Positions 2,928-30,004 of a DNA stretch of 30,004 nt are shown in pieces (positions within the stretch are counted from its first letter, which is position 1; every line of letters starts with the position of its first letter). Under the pieces are notes generated by a model that was not told where the DNA came from, ran no database searches, and saw only the letters and a list, made by a program, of their open reading frames with translations. Origin of the DNA: Caldisericia bacterium (GTDB taxonomy: Bacteria > Caldisericota > Caldisericia > B22-G15); the NCBI GenBank assembly GCA_021158845.1, contig JAGGSY010000086.1, positions 1-30,004 on the forward strand. Reading direction: 5' to 3'. The translations under genes and the position numbers were made by a program.

Positions 2928-3818
2928 CTATATGAGCCTTGTCCCATAATCGGGACCCTTTCCATTCAATCTTTCAACTGCTGCTTTAAGAGCTCTATCA
3001 AGCATAACCTTTGCCATATGCATTCTGTACTCTTTTGTTGCTCTTATATCTGTAATGGGGGAGATCTCCTCTTCTACAAGTTTCTTAGCCTCTTCAATCA
3101 AGGAATCGGAAAGTTCTTTGCCGTTGAGAAGAGATTCAATCTTCTTTGCCCTTGTTGGTTTTGGACCTACTGCACAGAAGGCAACTCTGTATTCATTTCC
3201 AGATAATACAAGAACACCTACTCCAACCTGAGCAAGGTCTTCTCCATTGTATCTTCCAAGTTTTACATAACATCCTGCATGTTTTTTCTGTGGGAGAGGT
3301 ATCTCAATGTATTCTACAAGTTCTCCCTCTTTAAGTGCTGTCTTTCTCGGTCCAAGGAACCACTCTTCAATAGGAATTCTTCTTTCTCCATCTTTACCCT
3401 TTACCACAACAGTTGCCTCATACAGAAGAAGAGCAGGTCCAGAATCAAGGGATGGAACTGCAGAACATATATTTCCAACCATTGTTGCCCTGTTTCTTAT
3501 TCCCATGGATGCAACACTTTTTGCACTTTCCCATAAAAGTGGAAACTTCTCCTTTACAGTTTCATCATCAATTATTTCGTTGAAAGTAGTAAGGGATCCC
3601 ACTATCAATTTGTTATCTTTAAATTCCAACTTCTTTAACTCCTTAAGACCTTTAATGTCAATTACTGCATCTGGAGTTTCAAAACCATCTTTAATTCTTA
3701 CAACAAGATCAGTTCCACCAGAAAGAATCCTTGCTTTAGCACCATACTTATTTAAAAGTTTAATGGCTTCATCAATTGATGAAGGTTTAAAATACTCAAA
3801 CTCATGAGCTATAATCAT
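2928..3818 (-). CDS. XDH family FAD-binding medium subunit (CoxM/XdhB-like)
   Basis: FEYFKPSSIDEAI, LSGGTDL, IRNRATMVGNI, DSGPAL, PITDIRATKEYR motifs; 296 aa. Confidence 0.95.
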   Translation of the reverse strand: MIIAHEFEYFKPSSIDEAIKLLNKYGAKARILSGGTDLVVRIKDGFETPDAVIDIKGLKELKKLEFKDNKLIVGSLTTFNEIIDDETVKEKFPLLWESAKSVASMGIRNRATMVGNICSAVPSLDSGPALLLYEATVVVKGKDGERRIPIEEWFLGPRKTALKEGELVEYIEIPLPQKKHAGCYVKLGRYNGEDLAQVGVGVLVLSGNEYRVAFCAVGPKPTRAKKIESLLNGKELSDSLIEEAKKLVEEEISPITDIRATKEYRMHMAKVMLDRALKAAVERLNGKGPDYGTRLI

Positions 3819-4835: not shown

Positions 4836-6412
4836 TACTTATCACCTCCCAGCTTCTTTACAATGTATGCAGATAGTTTGCTTGCTGCAGCATTTGATGG
4901 CATAACTATGGCTCCTGCCTCTTTAAGTTCCTTCTCTACCTTATCTTTATTCTGTGGGTCTTTCTTTGTTCCAGTTATGGAGCAAATGATGGATAAATCT
5001 CTTCCCTCCTTCTTTGCCATCTCCTTTGCTTTCTTAATCACTGGGGCAAGTTCCTCTCCCGGTTTCATATTGGAGCCATACCCAAGTACTACATCAAGTA
5101 GAATTACTGCTACCTCTGGATCCTTTGCCTCTTCAAGAATCCTTTTATTTCTTAAGGTATAATCAATCATTGGGTGTGGTCTTCCAACTGTGAATTCATC
5201 CTCTCCTAAATCAACCACTGTGTTCTTAAAACTCTTCCATGAGTCTTTAAGCTTAAATTCTTCCTTTAGAGGTGCATTACCATATGCATAACCAATCATA
5301 TCCTTAAAGAGAAGTTGAGCCTCATCACATAGTGTTCCTCCTGTGTATAATCCTCTAACATACTTCTGCCCCTCTTTCTTCTTTGAAGCTTCCTCCTCAG
5401 CAAGTTTCTTAATCTCCTCTTCTCTTTCCTCAAGGAGTTTTTTAAACTCATCCATGCTCTTTCCTTTTGAGAGAGAAGCTGCAATGAGTCCTGCCTCCTC
5501 AAGGGTGTTGGCTGGAATGGCTCCGGCATTTTTAACCACTTCCGGATCTCCTCCAATAAATATTCCAACAACTGGTTTCTTAATCTCTTCCTTTATAAGA
5601 TTTGCAATCTTCTTTAGTACATCCTCGTGTGGTGGTTTAGATACAAGGGCAATAACCTTTGTGTTTTCATCCTCGTTAAGTGCCTTCATTCCCTCAAGAA
5701 ACATTATTCCACCAACATCCTTTTTAACATCCCTTCCACCTGTTCCTATAGCTTGAGATATTCCTGCTCCCTCATTTGTAATTACACAACTTACCTCCTG
5801 AAGTCCTGTTCCAGATGCTGCCACAATTCCTATGTCTCCACGATTCACTACATTTGCAAAGGCAAGTGGAGCTCCATTTATTATTGCAGTTCCACAATCT
5901 GGTCCCATTACAAGAAGTCCTTTATCCCTTGCATACTTCTTAAGTTCGATCTCCTTTTCAAGGGGAACATTGTCTGAGAAGAGCATAACATGGAGGCCTT
6001 TCTCAAGTGCTTTCATCGCTTCATCTCCAGCATACTTTCCTGCAACAGAGATAAGCACGAGATTTGCATCTGGCATGATCTCCAGTGCACCTTCAAGACT
6101 CTTCGGTAGATAGTCTCCAGCCTCTTCAAATTTTGTTCTGCTCTCCTGAAGGTCTTTTTCTGCCTTTTCAAGCATCTTTTCAGCGAGAGATTCATCCTTT
6201 GCTTTGACAACAATAATGAGATCAGAATCCTTTGCTTGCTTAAACTCATCAAGCAGCATTCCAGAAGATTCAAGAATGGACTTGTTCTCATCTGTCCCCA
6301 TAACAATAGCAGCATCTTCAACTCCTTCAACCTCTGTAAGACCTTTAGCCACGAGCATGAGAGTCACAGAATCAAAGTACTGACCTTTCTTAACAACACC
6401 TTTTACAACCAT
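4835..6412 (-). CDS. fdrA: FdrA/AllF acyl-CoA-synthetase-like protein (oxamate carbamoyltransferase subunit family)
   Basis: GQYFDSVTLM start, LFSDNV, MGPDCGT, IVAASGTG, AIGTGGRD, GLYTGGTLC, VGRPHPMID; 525 aa. Confidence 0.93.
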   Translation of the reverse strand: MVVKGVVKKGQYFDSVTLMLVAKGLTEVEGVEDAAIVMGTDENKSILESSGMLLDEFKQAKDSDLIIVVKAKDESLAEKMLEKAEKDLQESRTKFEEAGDYLPKSLEGALEIMPDANLVLISVAGKYAGDEAMKALEKGLHVMLFSDNVPLEKEIELKKYARDKGLLVMGPDCGTAIINGAPLAFANVVNRGDIGIVAASGTGLQEVSCVITNEGAGISQAIGTGGRDVKKDVGGIMFLEGMKALNEDENTKVIALVSKPPHEDVLKKIANLIKEEIKKPVVGIFIGGDPEVVKNAGAIPANTLEEAGLIAASLSKGKSMDEFKKLLEEREEEIKKLAEEEASKKKEGQKYVRGLYTGGTLCDEAQLLFKDMIGYAYGNAPLKEEFKLKDSWKSFKNTVVDLGEDEFTVGRPHPMIDYTLRNKRILEEAKDPEVAVILLDVVLGYGSNMKPGEELAPVIKKAKEMAKKEGRDLSIICSITGTKKDPQNKDKVEKELKEAGAIVMPSNAAASKLSAYIVKKLGGDK

Positions 6413-25749: not shown

Positions 25750-26309
25750 TGGATATACTGTTTCTCTTCGTTAATCCGAAAAAGTTCTTTGAGGAGAGAA
25801 AAGAAAAAAATTACCTTTGGTTTATAGTTCCTATTTACATAGTTCTTTTTATTTTACTCTACTTTTCTGCAAGAAATCTCTTTGGTTCCTCTCGGGAAGT
25901 AAACATTGGTATTCTCATACAGATAATATTTAACCTTGTATTTTTCTTATTCCTCTCTCTTTTTATTAAGGTCTTTATAAAAATCTTTGGCGTTGAAAGA
26001 AAACTATTTAAATCCATAGAGGATGGATTATTAATCTCTCTTCCATCATTTACTCTCTTTGTTATCCTGTTTTATTTTCTTCAGCATAAGTTTCTCTCCC
26101 TCTCCTATCCTTTAATCTACTTCTTCACATTTCAGAAGTATGCAACTACCCTATCAAAGATACTTTTCTTCTTTTATTTCCCTCCAAGAGCCCTTCTCTT
26201 TGTATATACATTAATTGGAATTAGGTATATGTACAATCTAAACTGGAAAAAATCCCTTCTTCTTAGTATTATCATATATTCTATATTCTTTTTAACCTAT
26301 ATTCTGTGA
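25749..26309 (+). CDS. Yip1-like membrane protein
   Basis: N-terminal LFVNPKKFFEE followed by about 5 hydrophobic segments; GTG start coupled to neighbours. Confidence 0.55.
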   Translation: MDILFLFVNPKKFFEERKEKNYLWFIVPIYIVLFILLYFSARNLFGSSREVNIGILIQIIFNLVFFLFLSLFIKVFIKIFGVERKLFKSIEDGLLISLPSFTLFVILFYFLQHKFLSLSYPLIYFFTFQKYATTLSKILFFFYFPPRALLFVYTLIGIRYMYNLNWKKSLLLSIIIYSIFFLTYIL

Positions 26310-26317
26310 GGCTAAGG

Positions 26318-26962
26318 ATGAACTACAAAAAGGAAAGAGAAGAATTTATGAGAGTTGTGAATAAAATTTTAGAATACAGATTGACAGTTGGGACATGGGG
26401 AAATTTGAGTATGAAAGTGGAGGATGATAAATTTCTGATAACACCCTCTGCAATGGAATATGAGGATATGAAAGGAGAAGATCTTGTTGTTATGGATCTT
26501 GAAGGAAACATAATTTCTGGTAAGAAACCCTCCACTGAGAAATTTTTACATATGGAGATATATAAAAGTAGAAAGGATGTGCGTGGTATTCTTCATATTC
26601 ATGCCGTGTATTCAGGTGTATTCTCTGTAGTTGGAATCCCAATTCCTCCTTTAACAGAGGACATGGCACAAGGAATAGGTGGAGAAGTGGAGGTTACAGA
26701 TTATGTTCCACCTGGAACTAAGGAACTTGCCCTTGAGGTTGTAAGTCGCCTTAAAGACAAACAAGCTGTTATAATAAGAAATCATGGACTTGTAACCGTT
26801 GGAGATACGCTAAAAGAAGCTTTTAAGGTTGCAACACTTGTTGAGAGGGGAGCAGAAATTTTTATTCTCTCTCACTTAATTGGAGAACCAAAGATTTTAT
26901 CCCATGAAGAAGTTAAAAAATTAAGAGAATTCTATAAGAATAGATATATTAAAAGAAGATGA
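26318..26962 (+). CDS. Class II aldolase/adducin family protein (L-fuculose-1-P aldolase-like)
   Basis: GTWGNLS, ITPS, PSTE..LH, HIH, NHG. Start is ATG 26318 or GTG 26306. Confidence 0.92.
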   Translation: MNYKKEREEFMRVVNKILEYRLTVGTWGNLSMKVEDDKFLITPSAMEYEDMKGEDLVVMDLEGNIISGKKPSTEKFLHMEIYKSRKDVRGILHIHAVYSGVFSVVGIPIPPLTEDMAQGIGGEVEVTDYVPPGTKELALEVVSRLKDKQAVIIRNHGLVTVGDTLKEAFKVATLVERGAEIFILSHLIGEPKILSHEEVKKLREFYKNRYIKRR

Positions 26963-26967
26963 GGATT
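26946..26967 (+). repeat. 22-bp direct repeat, left copy (ATATTAAAAGAAGATGAGGATT)
   Basis: Identical to 28779-28800; contains the aldolase stop TGA. Confidence 0.95.
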
Positions 26968-26971
26968 TATA

Positions 26972-27913
26972 ATGAAAGGTGAGAAAAAATATAAAGAAAT
27001 GAAAGAGATAACTCAGGAAGATTATTTGGAATTCCTTAAAGTTAGAGAGAAGGTTGTAATAGAGGATGTGGAGATAAAATTTCAGAAAAATTGGGATATT
27101 AAATCTTTTGGTCCTCCCGAGGATTACACCCTTGAACGAACAACTGTATGGAGTTTCCCCGACCGTGGAAATTGGGCTACTCACAAAGGTAATTACCGTG
27201 GAAATTGGTCACCATATATCCCTAGAAATCTTATTCTAAAATACACTGAAAAAGGGGATTGGATTCTTGATCAGATGATGGGAAGTGGCACAACATTAGT
27301 AGAAGCGAAATTGTTGGAAAGAAATGCTATTGGACTGGATATAAATCTTGATGCTGTGATGGTTACAAAAGATAGACTGAATTTTTCCTATAATCCTCTA
27401 TTCAAAGAATATAGGGAGCCAATAATAAAAACATATTGGGGAGATGCAAGAAATCTTGATAAAATTAGTGATAATAGCATTGATCTCATCGCTACTCATC
27501 CTCCCTATGCGAGCATAATTTCATACACAAAAAAGAAAAAACTCAGTGATGACCTATCACAGCTTCCATTTGAAGAATATCTGAAAGAGATGAGTAAGGT
27601 AGCTGAGGAATCTTATAGGGTTTTAAAACCTGGAAAGATCTGTGCAATTCTTATTGGAGATACCAGAAAACACAAACACTACATACCAATTGCTTTTAGG
27701 GTTATGCAGGCTTTTTTAAATTCAGGCTTTATTTTAAAAGAAGACATTATTAAGTTACAATGGAACATGAAAGCCACCAGAGAAAGATGGCGTGCTAAAA
27801 GATATGAATTTTACCTTATTGCTCATGAACATATTTTTATCTTCAGAAAACCTGAGAGTGAAAAAGAGTATAAAAAGTATAAATTTAGTGTAAAATGGTG
27901 GAAGGATGATTAA
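26972..27913 (+). CDS. Amino-type (N6-adenine/N4-cytosine) DNA methyltransferase, atypical HPPY catalytic motif
   Basis: Motif I DQMMGSGTT precedes motif IV THPPY; RVLKPGK; HEHIFIFRK. Overlaps the REase start. Confidence 0.85.
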   Translation: MKGEKKYKEMKEITQEDYLEFLKVREKVVIEDVEIKFQKNWDIKSFGPPEDYTLERTTVWSFPDRGNWATHKGNYRGNWSPYIPRNLILKYTEKGDWILDQMMGSGTTLVEAKLLERNAIGLDINLDAVMVTKDRLNFSYNPLFKEYREPIIKTYWGDARNLDKISDNSIDLIATHPPYASIISYTKKKKLSDDLSQLPFEEYLKEMSKVAEESYRVLKPGKICAILIGDTRKHKHYIPIAFRVMQAFLNSGFILKEDIIKLQWNMKATRERWRAKRYEFYLIAHEHIFIFRKPESEKEYKKYKFSVKWWKDD

Positions 27914-28808
27914 ATTTAAGAAATTGGGCTTCAAAAGTTTTGAAGAGTATGTAAAAAGTTTTTTTGGCACTTTACTACCTTCAAACAAAACTTATGAATA
28001 CTTTGTGGACTGGAATAAAGTCAGAAAAGTAATAAATAAATATTTAGATGAACTCTCTTTATTAAACTCTTTAACAAAGGTAAAACCTTCTGAAATAGGA
28101 AAACATCTACAATCTTTACTAATAAAATACCCACAAATAGTGGAGGTTATCCCCTTTCTTATAGCTGAAAGAGCTAAAAATGGAAAAGTTGATATATTTG
28201 ATCCCGAATTAGAACAATTTTTAATTTTTGAATTCAAACGATCTAAAGTTAATAAAAATTCAATTCCAAAAATTATAGATTTTTGTATAAAAACAGGGAT
28301 TGTTGATCTGTTTCATGAAATAAAAGATATACATGATTATTTACTCGGAGTAGAGGTTGGGATTGATACAAATGCACGAAAGAATAGAAGCGGAGATATA
28401 TTTGAAAAGATGTGTCAAAACAAGGTAAGCAAAATTATAACAAAAGAATATGTCTCGGTAAACAACGATCCTAATTTCTCACTTTATCCAAAAATCACTA
28501 AAGGTAAGAGTAAAGGGAAAACTCATGATATAGTTATCTATAAACACAATCAACCAATACTAATAGTGGAGTGCAATTTTTATAATGTTATGGGAAGCAA
28601 ACCTATTTCTATAGCAGAAAGTTACATAGAGATGTATAGAGTGGCAAAGAAAAGTAATGTATTATTTTTATGGGTGACTGATGGACCTGCTTGGCTCAAA
28701 ATGAAAGAAGCTTTATTAAGAAGCATGAAGGAGATTGATTGGTTGCTTAATTATAGAATGTTAAACCTCATTATAAAAATATTAAAAGAAGATGAGGATT
28801 CTATTTAA
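27906..28808 (+). CDS. DpnII-family type II restriction endonuclease (likely GATC)
   Basis: GVEVGIDTNARKNRSG..FE, ECNFYN..GSK, FLWVTDG..W are DpnII family hallmarks. Confidence 0.88.
   Translation: MIKFKKLGFKSFEEYVKSFFGTLLPSNKTYEYFVDWNKVRKVINKYLDELSLLNSLTKVKPSEIGKHLQSLLIKYPQIVEVIPFLIAERAKNGKVDIFDPELEQFLIFEFKRSKVNKNSIPKIIDFCIKTGIVDLFHEIKDIHDYLLGVEVGIDTNARKNRSGDIFEKMCQNKVSKIITKEYVSVNNDPNFSLYPKITKGKSKGKTHDIVIYKHNQPILIVECNFYNVMGSKPISIAESYIEMYRVAKKSNVLFLWVTDGPAWLKMKEALLRSMKEIDWLLNYRMLNLIIKILKEDEDSI
28779..28800 (+). repeat. 22-bp direct repeat, right copy
   Basis: Identical to 26946-26967; contains the amidohydrolase ATG (28792). Confidence 0.95.
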
Positions 28809-30004
28809 GAATGGAAACATTTATGGAGAAAATTTCAAACTTTACAAATTCATGTCTGTAAAAGACGGAGTTTTTGAATATGTTGGTAACCATGAACCCA
28901 CTGGAATTAATTTTAATAAAGAAGTAGACCTTAAAGGAAATTTTGTCCTTCCTGGATTTTTTGATTCCCACATACACCTTCTCTCCTACTCAAAAACGCT
29001 TTTTGAACTAAATCTATCAGGTATCCAGTCAATGGAAGAGGTTAAAAAGGTTTTAAAAAGCTTTAAGCCCAAAGGAGAAGTTATCTATGGTTTTGGATGG
29101 GATGATGAGAAGTGGAAGGTAAAGCCAGACAAAAGGATACTTGACGAGATTTTTCCTGATAGATTTGTAATTCTAAAGAGAAGGGATGGTCACTCTCTCT
29201 GGGTAAATTCCCTCGTTTTAAAGAAGTTTAACATAGATAAAAATACTCCTGACCCTCATGGCGGAAAGATAGAGAGGGATGAAGAGGGAAATCCCACAGG
29301 AGTTTTAAGAGATAGAGCAATGGAACTTGTGAAGTTAAAAGATTCCTTGTATTCTGAAAAGGAGATTATAAATGAAGGCATAAAAAAACTTCACTCTCTT
29401 GGTATAACCTCTATTTGCAATATGGATGGAGATATACTTCACACTCTTATTGAAGGTAAGTTTAAATTGAGGATCTTTTCTTCCATACCTCTTGAAAAAC
29501 TTGATTCACTGATTTCTCTTGGTTTAAGAAGTTTCTTTGGAGATGAGTTTTTGAAAATAGGCGGTGTTAAGGTATTTCTTGATGGTTCTCTTGGCTCAAA
29601 AACCTGCTTTATGAAGCAGGGGTTTGAAGATGAAAAAAAGAATAGGGGTCTTATCTATTTTGATGAGGAGGAACTTGAAGATATATTTAAGAAGATAGAG
29701 GATAACAACCTTGTTCTTTGGGTTCACTCTATAGGAGATATGGCAAATGAGATTATACTCTCTATCTTTGAGAGATTTTGGAAGAAAAGGAATCTTCATC
29801 ACAGAATTGAACATGCTCAAATCCTCTCAGAATCCCTTATAGAGAAGATAAAAAATATAAAGCCATACCTTTCTGTTCAGCCTTCTCACATCTATCTTGA
29901 TGTGGAAAAGATAGAAAAGTATCTTGGTAAAAGAGGTAGGTGGACCTATCCCATAAAAAGTTTAATAAATTCTGGCTCTGTTGTCTCTTTTGGTTCTGAT
30001 GCTC
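28792..30004 (+). CDS. Amidohydrolase 3 family (YtcJ-like) protein, truncated by the window end
   Basis: Absent from the ORF track (no stop in window). Manual translation: MRILFKNGNIY...DLKGNFVLPGFFDSHIH...GFGWD...RDGHSLWVNS...GNPTGVL...VKVFLDGSLGSKT...HSIGD...HRIEHAQ...SVQP...GSDA. Confidence 0.92.
   Translation, partial: MRILFKNGNIYGENFKLYKFMSVKDGVFEYVGNHEPTGINFNKEVDLKGNFVLPGFFDSHIHLLSYSKTLFELNLSGIQSMEEVKKVLKSFKPKGEVIYGFGWDDEKWKVKPDKRILDEIFPDRFVILKRRDGHSLWVNSLVLKKFNIDKNTPDPHGGKIERDEEGNPTGVLRDRAMELVKLKDSLYSEKEIINEGIKKLHSLGITSICNMDGDILHTLIEGKFKLRIFSSIPLEKLDSLISLGLRSFFGDEFLKIGGVKVFLDGSLGSKTCFMKQGFEDEKKNRGLIYFDEEELEDIFKKIEDNNLVLWVHSIGDMANEIILSIFERFWKKRNLHHRIEHAQILSESLIEKIKNIKPYLSVQPSHIYLDVEKIEKYLGKRGRWTYPIKSLINSGSVVSFGSDA

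Follow-up and report, generated by a model that had tools for sequence, protein, structure and literature searches.

A restriction-modification pair between two host genes

The window, the whole 30,004-nt stretch of DNA that was analysed, encodes on its plus strand a class II aldolase (26306..26962; PF00596, E=1.1e-51) and an amidohydrolase (28792..30004, cut by the contig end; PF07969, E=3.8e-63; 496 aa in relatives). The DNA comes from an uncultured bacterium of the Caldisericota that belongs to hydrothermal vents. In two congeneric genomes, G001 and G002, the aldolase orthologs are 92-94% identical and lie directly upstream of the amidohydrolase, whose orthologs are likewise 92-94% identical. 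In the window the two genes are separated by an insert of 1811 bp on the plus strand (26968..28778), whose limits follow from comparing the filled allele with the empty one of G002 and G001. It runs from 4 nt before a methylase ATG to codon 291 of an endonuclease gene and carries no other genes; the genes around it are those that surround the empty site.

The upstream gene of the insert encodes a DNA methyltransferase (M) of 313 aa (26972..27913, plus strand). It matches the N6_N4 DNA methylase family (PF01555, E=3.7e-28) in two stretches of permuted order, with the AdoMet-binding region preceding the catalytic 'HPPY' region, and its N-terminus (MKGEKKY...) has the normal native form. Homologs of M with 80-88% identity adjoin DpnII-family genes in many bacteria and archaea, and a protein identical to M is found in 15 metagenome contigs.

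The downstream gene encodes a DpnII-family Type II restriction endonuclease (R) of 300 aa (27906..28808, plus strand). Its match to PF04556 (E=5.7e-71, 239.5 bits) spans residues 17-287 and is thus nearly full length. The gene shares 8 nt with M and 17 nt with the amidohydrolase, and its TAA stop (28806-28808) falls 14 nt inside the amidohydrolase. In an alignment of 34 sequences R agrees with the others at every one of the 50 invariant columns, and it is intact in 10 of 10 full-length population copies, among which 18 polymorphic codons are synonymous only and 13 change the amino acid, a synonymous excess. We found no solved structure or NCBIfam model matching R. The pair has two features of a DpnII-family Type II restriction-modification (R-M) system, an endonuclease domain with its conserved core and an adjacent cognate methyltransferase, and the same pairing recurs in about 20 related loci. 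From sequence, M and R presumably form a GATC-specific Type II R-M system. Avoidance of GATC was considered as a mark of the system and rejected: the observed/expected ratio of 0.51 here compares with 0.55 and 0.66 in congeners that lack the cassette, and several other palindromes have ratios equally low or lower still. As GATC is similarly under-represented in these cassette-free congeners, the genome shows no specific imprint of the cassette.

The insert stands out in composition, with 31.4% GC placing it at the 1.9th percentile of the genome. The low GC content that the initial annotation had noted from a few lines of sequence is right in kind: R has 28.3% and M 34.0% GC, compared with 37.0% for the genome, and R lies below every 900-nt window in the genome.

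A junction repeat read in three frames

The insert is flanked by two exact plus-strand copies of the 22-mer ATATTAAAAGAAGATGAGGATT, at 26946..26967 and 28779..28800, just where they had been reported. None of 100 dinucleotide-preserving shuffles leads one to expect such a recurrence (0 expected), and a blastn-short comparison of flank against flank gave E=2.7e-8. Identity ends at both outer edges of the repeat (26945 T and 28778 A; 26968 T and 28801 C). The left copy has its native left context and is identical to the single copy of G002, and the right copy contains the amidohydrolase ATG (28792) and a borrowed endonuclease tail.

Reading both copies also bore out the proposal that the 22-mer is used in all three frames. 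The left copy holds the last five codons of the aldolase and its stop (...YIKRR followed by TGA), as well as a GAGGA (26961..26965, plus strand) six nt 5' of the methylase ATG that resembles a Shine-Dalgarno (SD) sequence and, judged by sequence, may act as one. At the empty site these same bases lie within amidohydrolase codons 1-3. The right copy reads ...ILKEDED(S) in the endonuclease frame and ATG-AGG-ATT in that of the amidohydrolase. Because the target was a 4-nt stop/start overlap, its copy is read in three frames; because 22 nt of the junction were left on both sides, both host genes are intact, and with junction bases copied to either side all four genes stay readable. The copied amidohydrolase start also opens a 7-codon mini-ORF, MRIYNER* (26959..26982, plus strand), that spans the methylase ATG and could possibly serve as a translational coupling relay for the methylase.

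The insert has no promoter, SD or stop codon of its own. This agrees with the earlier view that the cassette depends on signals of the host operon, for such a minimal insert of bare coding sequence would have to be expressed from that operon. No plus-strand terminator was detected between the groEL terminator (24095) and the contig end, and promoter-like sites occur no more often than in shuffled sequence; both scans are weak in either direction.

Empty sites in relatives

The initial annotation predicted that relatives would have the aldolase and amidohydrolase joined through a single 22-mer. The congener G002 has precisely this, one exact 22-mer with the ATGA overlap (L003, 1488-1509); in G001 the genes are arranged alike, and the 22-mer has three mismatches. 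Filled and empty alleles differ by the two genes and one repeat copy and by nothing else, and the insert is, as claimed, free of transposase and integrase. A metagenome contig of the G002 species (L123) also has a single-copy empty site with the ATGA overlap. It was the sole match when metagenome contigs were scanned for the exact pattern of the empty junction, with 99.4-99.8% identity to G002 and 90-92% to the window; belonging to the G002 species, it adds no conspecific empty allele. A look-up of conspecific empty-site contigs by exact aldolase protein returned either nothing on record or filled contigs only.

R was not found in any of the eight same-family genomes searched and was found in only two of 32 other relatives. 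The left flanks of G001 and G002 are 95% identical to one another and 89-90% identical to the window. In the sister genus the aldolase does not adjoin the amidohydrolase, so this outgroup cannot polarise the junction.

Populations and persistence

At least 12 independent metagenome contigs, drawn from JGI, ENA and Logan assemblies, have the filled locus. An assembly artefact was rejected as an origin of the repeat, since these contigs, made by different assemblers, carry both junctions. The insertion is common to strains from at least 10 metagenomes, in which R has a mean diversity of 1.4% and the flanks of 2-2.5%, and it is seen together with both right-flank haplotypes (CTATTT and CTTTTT). 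In several cassette-bearing strains the left repeat copy has already mutated and differs from the right copy. The insertion is thus recent, as had been suggested, relative to the sister-species split (~90% nucleotide identity), but not otherwise, given the diversity of R and the mutated left repeat.

In contigs of four runs, words of the empty junction are present and cassette depth is lower. Vent metagenomes contain both filled and empty alleles; the latter may be ancestral and need not stem from excision through the repeats, as the initial annotation proposed. The cassette has presumably persisted through defence or addiction, the latter corresponding to the post-segregational killing that was suggested at first.

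The endonuclease C-terminus and the right joint

The homologs of R end in ...ILK*, which answers the question of where the native endonuclease stops. In the window the codons ILK coincide with the first nine nucleotides of the right repeat, ATATTAAAA (28779..28787, plus strand), a microhomology at the right junction, and the same nine bases encode ILK in two relatives, L049 and L036. They are consequently as likely to be donor as target sequence, and only EDEDSI is borrowed. The earlier statement that the repeat supplies most of the endonuclease C-terminus holds for EDEDSI and for the missing stop codon, but 'most' is an overstatement since ILK is the native end of the family. Part of the repeat may accordingly be donor sequence, with a truly duplicated target of 13-22 nt, and from these readings the right junction looks microhomology-guided. 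The 9-nt match could alternatively reflect selection for insertions that keep a working endonuclease tail.

A second insertion of the cassette family

The cassette family (80-88% amino acid identity for M and 73-79% for R) has a scattered distribution among MAGs of thermophilic bacteria and archaea. In a Clostridia MAG (L036) a cassette of this family has inserted a second time, independently, with a 43-nt duplication that has three mismatches. The target there is the stretch where an Eco57I-like gene overlaps an Mrr_N gene, and the corresponding empty site is found in G042. The left joint precedes the native methylase ATG by about 5 nt, much as in the window (4 nt), and comparison with the nearest relative showed no obvious microhomology there. 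We followed the suggestion to inspect the cassette flanks at other loci and found flanking repeats in only 2 of about 16 independent loci. Flanking repeats were thus rejected as a general trait of the M-to-R cassette family.

Origin of the insertion

The empty sites, the GC content and the repeat uphold the initial proposal that a foreign R-M pair inserted at the ATGA junction with target duplication. The locus very probably arose by recombinase-less integration of a horizontally acquired Type II R-M pair at the aldolase/amidohydrolase overlap, the most likely route being microhomology-guided illegitimate joining. The pair would have entered the 4-nt stop/start overlap with no recombinase of its own, the right joint falling within the 9 nt common to the 3' end of the donor endonuclease and the target, and the left joint 13-22 nt further downstream in the target, so that the stretch between the joints is present twice. 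One form that this could take is a replicative template switch that leaves the target after ...GAGGATT and returns at ATATTAAAA. No close donor cassette is on record (the best non-self M is 87% identical and the best R 79%); microhomology at the left joint cannot be checked for this reason, and the template-switch route is accordingly tentative. Once in place, the cassette would be transcribed by host read-through, the methylase translated from the GAGGA of the left copy and the amidohydrolase from the ATG of the right copy. The cassette would then have persisted and spread in the species, with the empty allele remaining in the same populations.

Other origins were weighed against this one. 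A non-autonomous transposon-like unit might be suspected from an 8-nt inverted match, TATAATGA (26968-26975) and TCATTATA (28768-28775), whose arms are at most 3 nt away from the insert ends; only about 0.1% of random position pairs in the genome show one. PMC2853133 describes R-M units with inverted repeats on their flanks and mentions that IS1630 makes duplications of 19-26 bp. The right arm of this match, however, sits in endonuclease codons that are variable among homologs and is broken (ATT GTA) in L025, L115 and L121, and between it and the repeat lie three further bases (AAA, codon K291). Inverted ends of this kind are missing from the second event (L036), the other cassette loci have no conserved ends, and there is no transposase in the insert or its neighbourhood. 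With neither a transposase nor terminal inverted repeats shared by copies, the insert does not have the make-up of an IS or of a transposon with passenger genes, and we regard a transposon-like origin as very improbable. Integrase-mediated islands typically have their att site in a tRNA gene; here the insert has no integrase and the target is a junction of protein genes.

Two further scenarios turn on the population data. In Campbell-type integration, a circular cassette that already carried the 22-mer, for instance because it had been excised from this site in a relative, would have entered by a single crossover at the 22-nt homology, making the present locus a secondary arrival. In its favour are the coexistence of filled and empty alleles in the same vent populations, the presence of both right-flank haplotypes in the filled state and an R diversity somewhat below that of the flanks, the last being what spread of the unit from strain to strain would produce. 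Homologous recombination of the ordinary sort, acting in the long flanks, explains such spread equally well, though, and no circle, tandem or excision joint is listed among the contigs of the four runs, in which rare forms drop out. Since this scenario also leaves the first joining of the 22-mer to the cassette unexplained and still needs a primary illegitimate event, we consider it highly unlikely. Alternatively, the cassette could be ancestral to the genus and have been lost from the lineages of G001 and G002 by exact deletion between the repeats, so that their empty sites would be excision scars. Recombination or slippage between the 22-nt direct repeats would exactly restore the ATGA junction, and because G001 and G002 are closer to each other than to the window, one loss is as parsimonious as one gain. 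Against this stand the strongly foreign composition of R, its diversity below that of the flanks and the fact that the cassette was not found in any of eight same-family genomes. The fusion of the endonuclease tail to host sequence moreover requires that insertion into an empty site came first regardless, and an ancestral cassette appears exceedingly improbable as the origin of the empty sites.

Returning to illegitimate joining as the preferred origin, it is conceivable, if rather doubtful, that promoter-less and SD-less DpnII-family M-R pairs are specialised 'gene-junction parasites' that enter coupled overlaps by two template switches. Such a pair would exit near a start-codon or SD-like stretch and return at the endonuclease's own 3' end, both at microhomologies. 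If true, this would explain why the left joints lie 4-5 nt before the methylase ATG in two independent events and why the copy includes the start of the downstream gene.

The locus is one of the cleaner natural records of an R-M pair settling without a mobility gene, as an empty site, the filled site in many strains, presence and absence within populations and a second independent event are on hand together. It suggests, at the level of sequence, that an R-M unit can be bare coding sequence that lives on host operon signals and even borrows its stop codon. The joint in sequence shared by donor and target offers a lead, microhomology or template switching, for a mechanism left open in the literature.

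Comparison with known systems

The R-M pair resembles the DpnII and MboI-type Type IIP (GATC) systems in having a PF04556 endonuclease with a methyltransferase directly upstream and overlapping. It differs from DpnII in having one methylase where DpnII has two. Nor is M Dam-like: the genome has no PF02086, and M matches PF01555 in permuted order.

R-M insertion with long target duplication was described in Helicobacter pylori by Nobusato et al. (2000), as cited in Furuta, Abe and Kobayashi (2010, NAR 38:2428; PMC2853133), whose account of the class confirms the attribution to H. pylori made in the initial annotation. The locus in the window is a further case of this known class and not a new kind of element; the general understanding of such R-M systems is unchanged by it. 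Like the members described in PMC2853133, it consists of R and M genes only (inserts below 20 kb) with no mobility gene, and its flanking direct repeats align to a single copy at a relative's empty site. Fusion of a gene with the duplicated target is also reported there; here it concerns the endonuclease tail and in L036 the methylase. The repeat is shorter, at 22 nt and possibly 13 nt of pure target, than the 46-47 bp of the cases compared here and than the >30 bp required in that screen, a threshold meant to exclude site-specific recombination and not a biological boundary. Unlike the class as portrayed in that paper, the target is a 4-nt stop/start overlap and the insert lacks its own SD and stop; unlike in the discussion there, nine nucleotides of the repeat coincide with the donor gene's own end, hinting at a microhomology route.

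Recombinase-free joining of foreign DNA at microhomologies is known from short-patch double illegitimate recombination in Acinetobacter baylyi, and ectopic single strands are reported to integrate at microhomologies during replication in Acinetobacter (bioRxiv 10.1101/2023.11.22.568220). In the A. baylyi events described, two microhomologies are used, the size varies and recipient bases are duplicated or deleted. Those events are short patches, whereas the unit here comprises two genes in 1.8 kb, and where joining in A. baylyi involves two microhomologies, only one of the two joints here lies demonstrably in shared sequence.

A 22-nt direct repeat brackets the restriction-modification genes

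The 22-mer ATATTAAAAGAAGATGAGGATT occurs at 26946-26967 and 28779-28800, and the match between the copies stops abruptly at each outer edge. A search of the window confirmed the initial annotation that this repeat is present twice, flanking a restriction-modification (R-M) pair. It found no further copies with two mismatches allowed, and no repeat of this type is expected in shuffles of the window. The ORF list and Pfam place four co-directional and tightly overlapping genes here: a class II aldolase (26306-26962), an N6_N4 DNA methylase (M, 26972-27913), a DpnII-family endonuclease (R, 27906-28808) and an Amidohydro_3 protein (28792 to the contig end). Frame inspection bears out that the repeat copies are read in three frames. 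In the left copy, the aldolase frame reads ...Y I K R R stop, a GAGGA overlaps this stop, and the methylase ATG lies six nt further on. In the right copy, the endonuclease frame reads I L K E D E D (S), and the amidohydrolase start, ATG AGG ATT, lies in a different frame. The endonuclease ends at a TAA inside the region of the amidohydrolase sixth codon. No terminator-like sites were found on the + strand from the groEL terminator (24095) to the contig end.

The methylase aligns to the Pfam N6_N4_Mtase profile with the two parts permuted: the match to the AdoMet-binding part precedes that to the catalytic part, where the motif is an unusual HPPY. Weak Trm11/UPF0020-like matches were also obtained, and the methylase homologs are called tRNA methylases in some sources.

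Relatives carry the empty site

The window is the entire contig C1 of a 1.21 Mb genome (G000) in 181 contigs. Judged by the cluster names of its amidohydrolase relatives, the host belongs to Caldisericota. Two same-genus genomes, G001 and G002, encode the amidohydrolase at 92-94% aa identity, and a search of both found no R. As predicted for relatives without the R-M genes, the aldolase stop and amidohydrolase start of G002 overlap as ATGA inside a single exact 22-mer. G001 has the same layout, with three substitutions in its 22-mer, and the empty junction is also found on a JGI metagenome contig belonging to the G002 species. The filled allele has exactly one repeat copy and 1811 bp more than the empty one; this extra DNA holds the two R-M genes and nothing else, and both host genes remain intact.

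Joints of the insert

Close R homologs are mostly 294 aa long; after ...LNLIxxILK they stop at once or continue for a few variable residues. The window protein ends in ...LNLIIK-ILK-EDEDSI. Since the homologs end in ILK, these residues are native in kind and only six are borrowed, which narrows the proposal that the repeat supplies most of the C-terminus to those six. ILK is encoded by the nine bases ATATTAAAA, with which the right repeat copy begins, and the same bases code for ILK in two other loci, L049 (where TGA follows) and L036. The donor 3' end and the target thus have nine bases in common (13 of 15 with neighbouring positions), so the right crossover could lie anywhere within them. 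On this comparison, the stretch necessarily derived from the target would be 13 nt, within an apparent duplication of 22 nt. The left joint lies at most 4 nt upstream of the methylase ATG. With MKGEKKY..., the methylase has a normal native N-terminus, so no part of the gene was lost; a donor SD region is absent as a separate sequence at this joint.

An independent insertion of the same cassette family

Of some 16 independent M-then-R loci that include both flanks, only the window's lineage and L036, a locus from an uncultured Clostridia bacterium MAG, show significant direct repeats there. In L036, a 43-nt stretch recurs with three mismatches at 1392-1434 and 3386-3428. The left copy lies where an Eco57I/TaqI_C-type gene ends, its TGA overlapping an ATG, and the right copy is the opening of a 186-aa Mrr_N-domain gene. 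The same two host genes are adjacent and overlapping in a relative, G042 (L125:1960-2130, minus strand), which represents the empty site. A copy of the opening 14 codons of the Mrr_N gene runs in frame into the L036 methylase, whose native ATG lies five nt past the left copy. Unlike in the window, the endonuclease keeps its own stop and about 125 nt of its 3' flank. Both insertions have an overlapping-junction target, a downstream gene start in the copy and a left joint 4-5 nt upstream of the M ATG. Two cases are too few to separate mechanism from survivorship: visible events are likely limited to those with prompt M expression and spared host genes.

A wider pass over 81 DpnII-family loci returned three more direct repeats that bracket a DpnII-family two-gene unit: L079 (3805-3878 and 6046-6119; 74 nt at 93%), L110 (567-592 and 2406-2431; 26 nt, exact) and L088 (3129-3177 and 5564-5613; 50 nt at 88%). 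These are candidates for further insertions with target duplication.

Foreign origin of the cassette

The low GC content ascribed to the endonuclease holds genome-wide: R has 28.3% and M 34.0% against 37.0% for the genome, and R lies below every 900-nt genome window. Relatives searches found R in none of eight same-family genomes and in 2 of 32 others. Overlapping M-then-R pairs homologous to the cassette (70-79% identity for R and 80-88% for M) are found in Thermoproteota, Methanothermococcus, WOR-3, Clostridia, Planctomycetia, Dictyoglomus, Caldisericum and other MAGs. Only frequent horizontal transfer among thermophiles accounts for this scatter. No donor closer than about 87-88% (M) or 79% (R) is on record.

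The closest non-identical cassette is that of L026 (R 79%, M 88%). There, the methylase start shares 7 nt with a 193-aa gene (975-1556) that has no Pfam match and may be a third component of that system variant.

CTAG is nearly missing: its observed/expected ratio is 0.09 in G000 as a whole and 0.02 and 0.14 in 200 kb each of G001 and G002; in G000, ACGT, GGCC, GTAC, GATC and TCGA range from 0.33 to 0.52. Palindrome avoidance is strong across the genus, whatever the cassette contributes.

Strain variation and age of the insertion

An identical M protein is on record in 15 contigs. Ten of these and population contig L025 stem from different projects and assemblers, and those that extend into a flank all have the order aldolase, M, R and amidohydrolase, so the assembly artefact considered initially can be set aside. 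Drift of the repeats has begun. In four contigs (L113, L115, L117 and L122) the left copy, but not the right, has a synonymous T-to-C change, and L118 has a 1-nt deletion in its left copy, after which the aldolase ends in ...KRDEDL at a TAA that overlaps the methylase ATG. In L121 (copies at 25-46 and 1858-1879) both copies show an identical G-to-A change (GAAGATG to GAAAATG), which could reflect gene conversion between them or recurrent mutation.

Mean pairwise difference among cassette-bearing contigs is 1.4% for R, 2.0% for the aldolase and 2.4-2.5% for the amidohydrolase start; M diversity is lower but biased, the contigs having been retrieved by identical M protein. Between the window and L025, the insert differs by 1.3% and the flanks by 1.9-3.2%. 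The insertion is thus younger than the divergence from G001 and G002 (nt identity about 90%), and it is older than, or has spread through, much of the diversity that the species now has. The insertion had been called recent; it does postdate that split, yet repeat drift and strain diversity indicate that it is not brand new. All ten full-length copies of R are intact; their polymorphic codons comprise 18 with synonymous changes only and 13 that change the amino acid, consistent with a working gene under purifying selection. Phage defence and post-segregational killing are established means of maintenance in other Type II systems.

L025 also encodes, two genes past the amidohydrolase, a metallo-beta-lactamase-fold protein (5094-5912, minus strand) with a precomputed Pfam match to Anti-Pycsar_Apyc1. 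It is probably a host hydrolase, though near a defence insert.

Filled and empty alleles in vent populations

Runs with the locus come from metagenomes of hydrothermal vents and sediments. For four runs, each from a different study, Logan contigs were mapped to 26300-29500 at ≥95% identity. Flank depth exceeds insert depth in three: X12 (314-325 versus 105-124), X3 (17-20 versus 8) and X6 (40-100 versus 8-12). The X12 left-flank depth rests on a single 567-nt unitig, which is 98% identical to the window and thus too near for a sister species. Empty-junction words are present, GAATAGAT preceding 28779 in X3 and X6 and CTTTTTAA following 26967 in X12. These junction unitigs are short and could be sister-species DNA, so the depth argument carries the weight. 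We read these data as coexistence within the species of filled and empty alleles, the latter either ancestral or excision products. Circle- or tandem-type joints were not found among the Logan contigs of the four runs.

In another vent metagenome run, X1, one contig extends from the left flank through M at full depth (19.6) and ends at 27887. For the endonuclease region (27888-28733) there are only fragments, at depth 1-6, and from 28734 onwards the depth is again 20. In most X1 cells, a diverged or deleted R may lie next to an intact M.

Proposed expression and integration

M and R would be transcribed by read-through from the host operon, and the methylase translated from the left-copy GAGGA. 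The copied amidohydrolase ATG opens a 7-codon frame (26959-26982) that ends just past the methylase ATG and may aid M translation; the endonuclease and amidohydrolase would be translated by coupling.

For integration, we favour recombinase-free illegitimate joining guided by microhomology. In the simplest concrete form, a replicating strand would switch template twice, out after ...GAGGATT and back at ATATTAAAA, so that the stretch between would be copied twice. A preprint on Acinetobacter describes ectopic strands integrating at microhomologies during replication (bioRxiv 10.1101/2023.11.22.568220).

The sole argument for a transposon-like unit mobilised in trans is an 8-nt inverted match between the two ends of the insert, TATAATGA (26968-26975) and TCATTATA (28768-28775), of a kind seen in only 0.1% of random position pairs in the genome. 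Its right arm lies in variable codons and is already broken in some strains, and the match is missing in L036; it is thus probably due to chance, and we regard such a unit as very improbable. Campbell-type entry of a circle already carrying the 22-mer could account for spread among strains, but it leaves the first event unexplained and seems unlikely overall. That the cassette was ancestral and precisely lost in the sister species is possible on so small a tree; composition and diversity speak against it, to the point that we give it hardly any credence.

Relation to known insertions

Several features deserve to be retained: a minimal insert living on host signals, the nine common bases at the right joint, the apparent presence/absence polymorphism in vent populations, and the independent second insertion of the same cassette family. 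The locus belongs to the class termed insertion with long target duplication. As set out by Furuta, Abe and Kobayashi (2010, PMC2853133), this class was found first in H. pylori and later in many bacteria, with all R-M types; its mechanism is left open there, with double-strand breakage suggested. Three of the four screening criteria of that paper fit the locus. The fourth is a repeat of >30 bp, whereas the window repeat has 22 nt; this threshold was meant only to exclude site-specific recombination.
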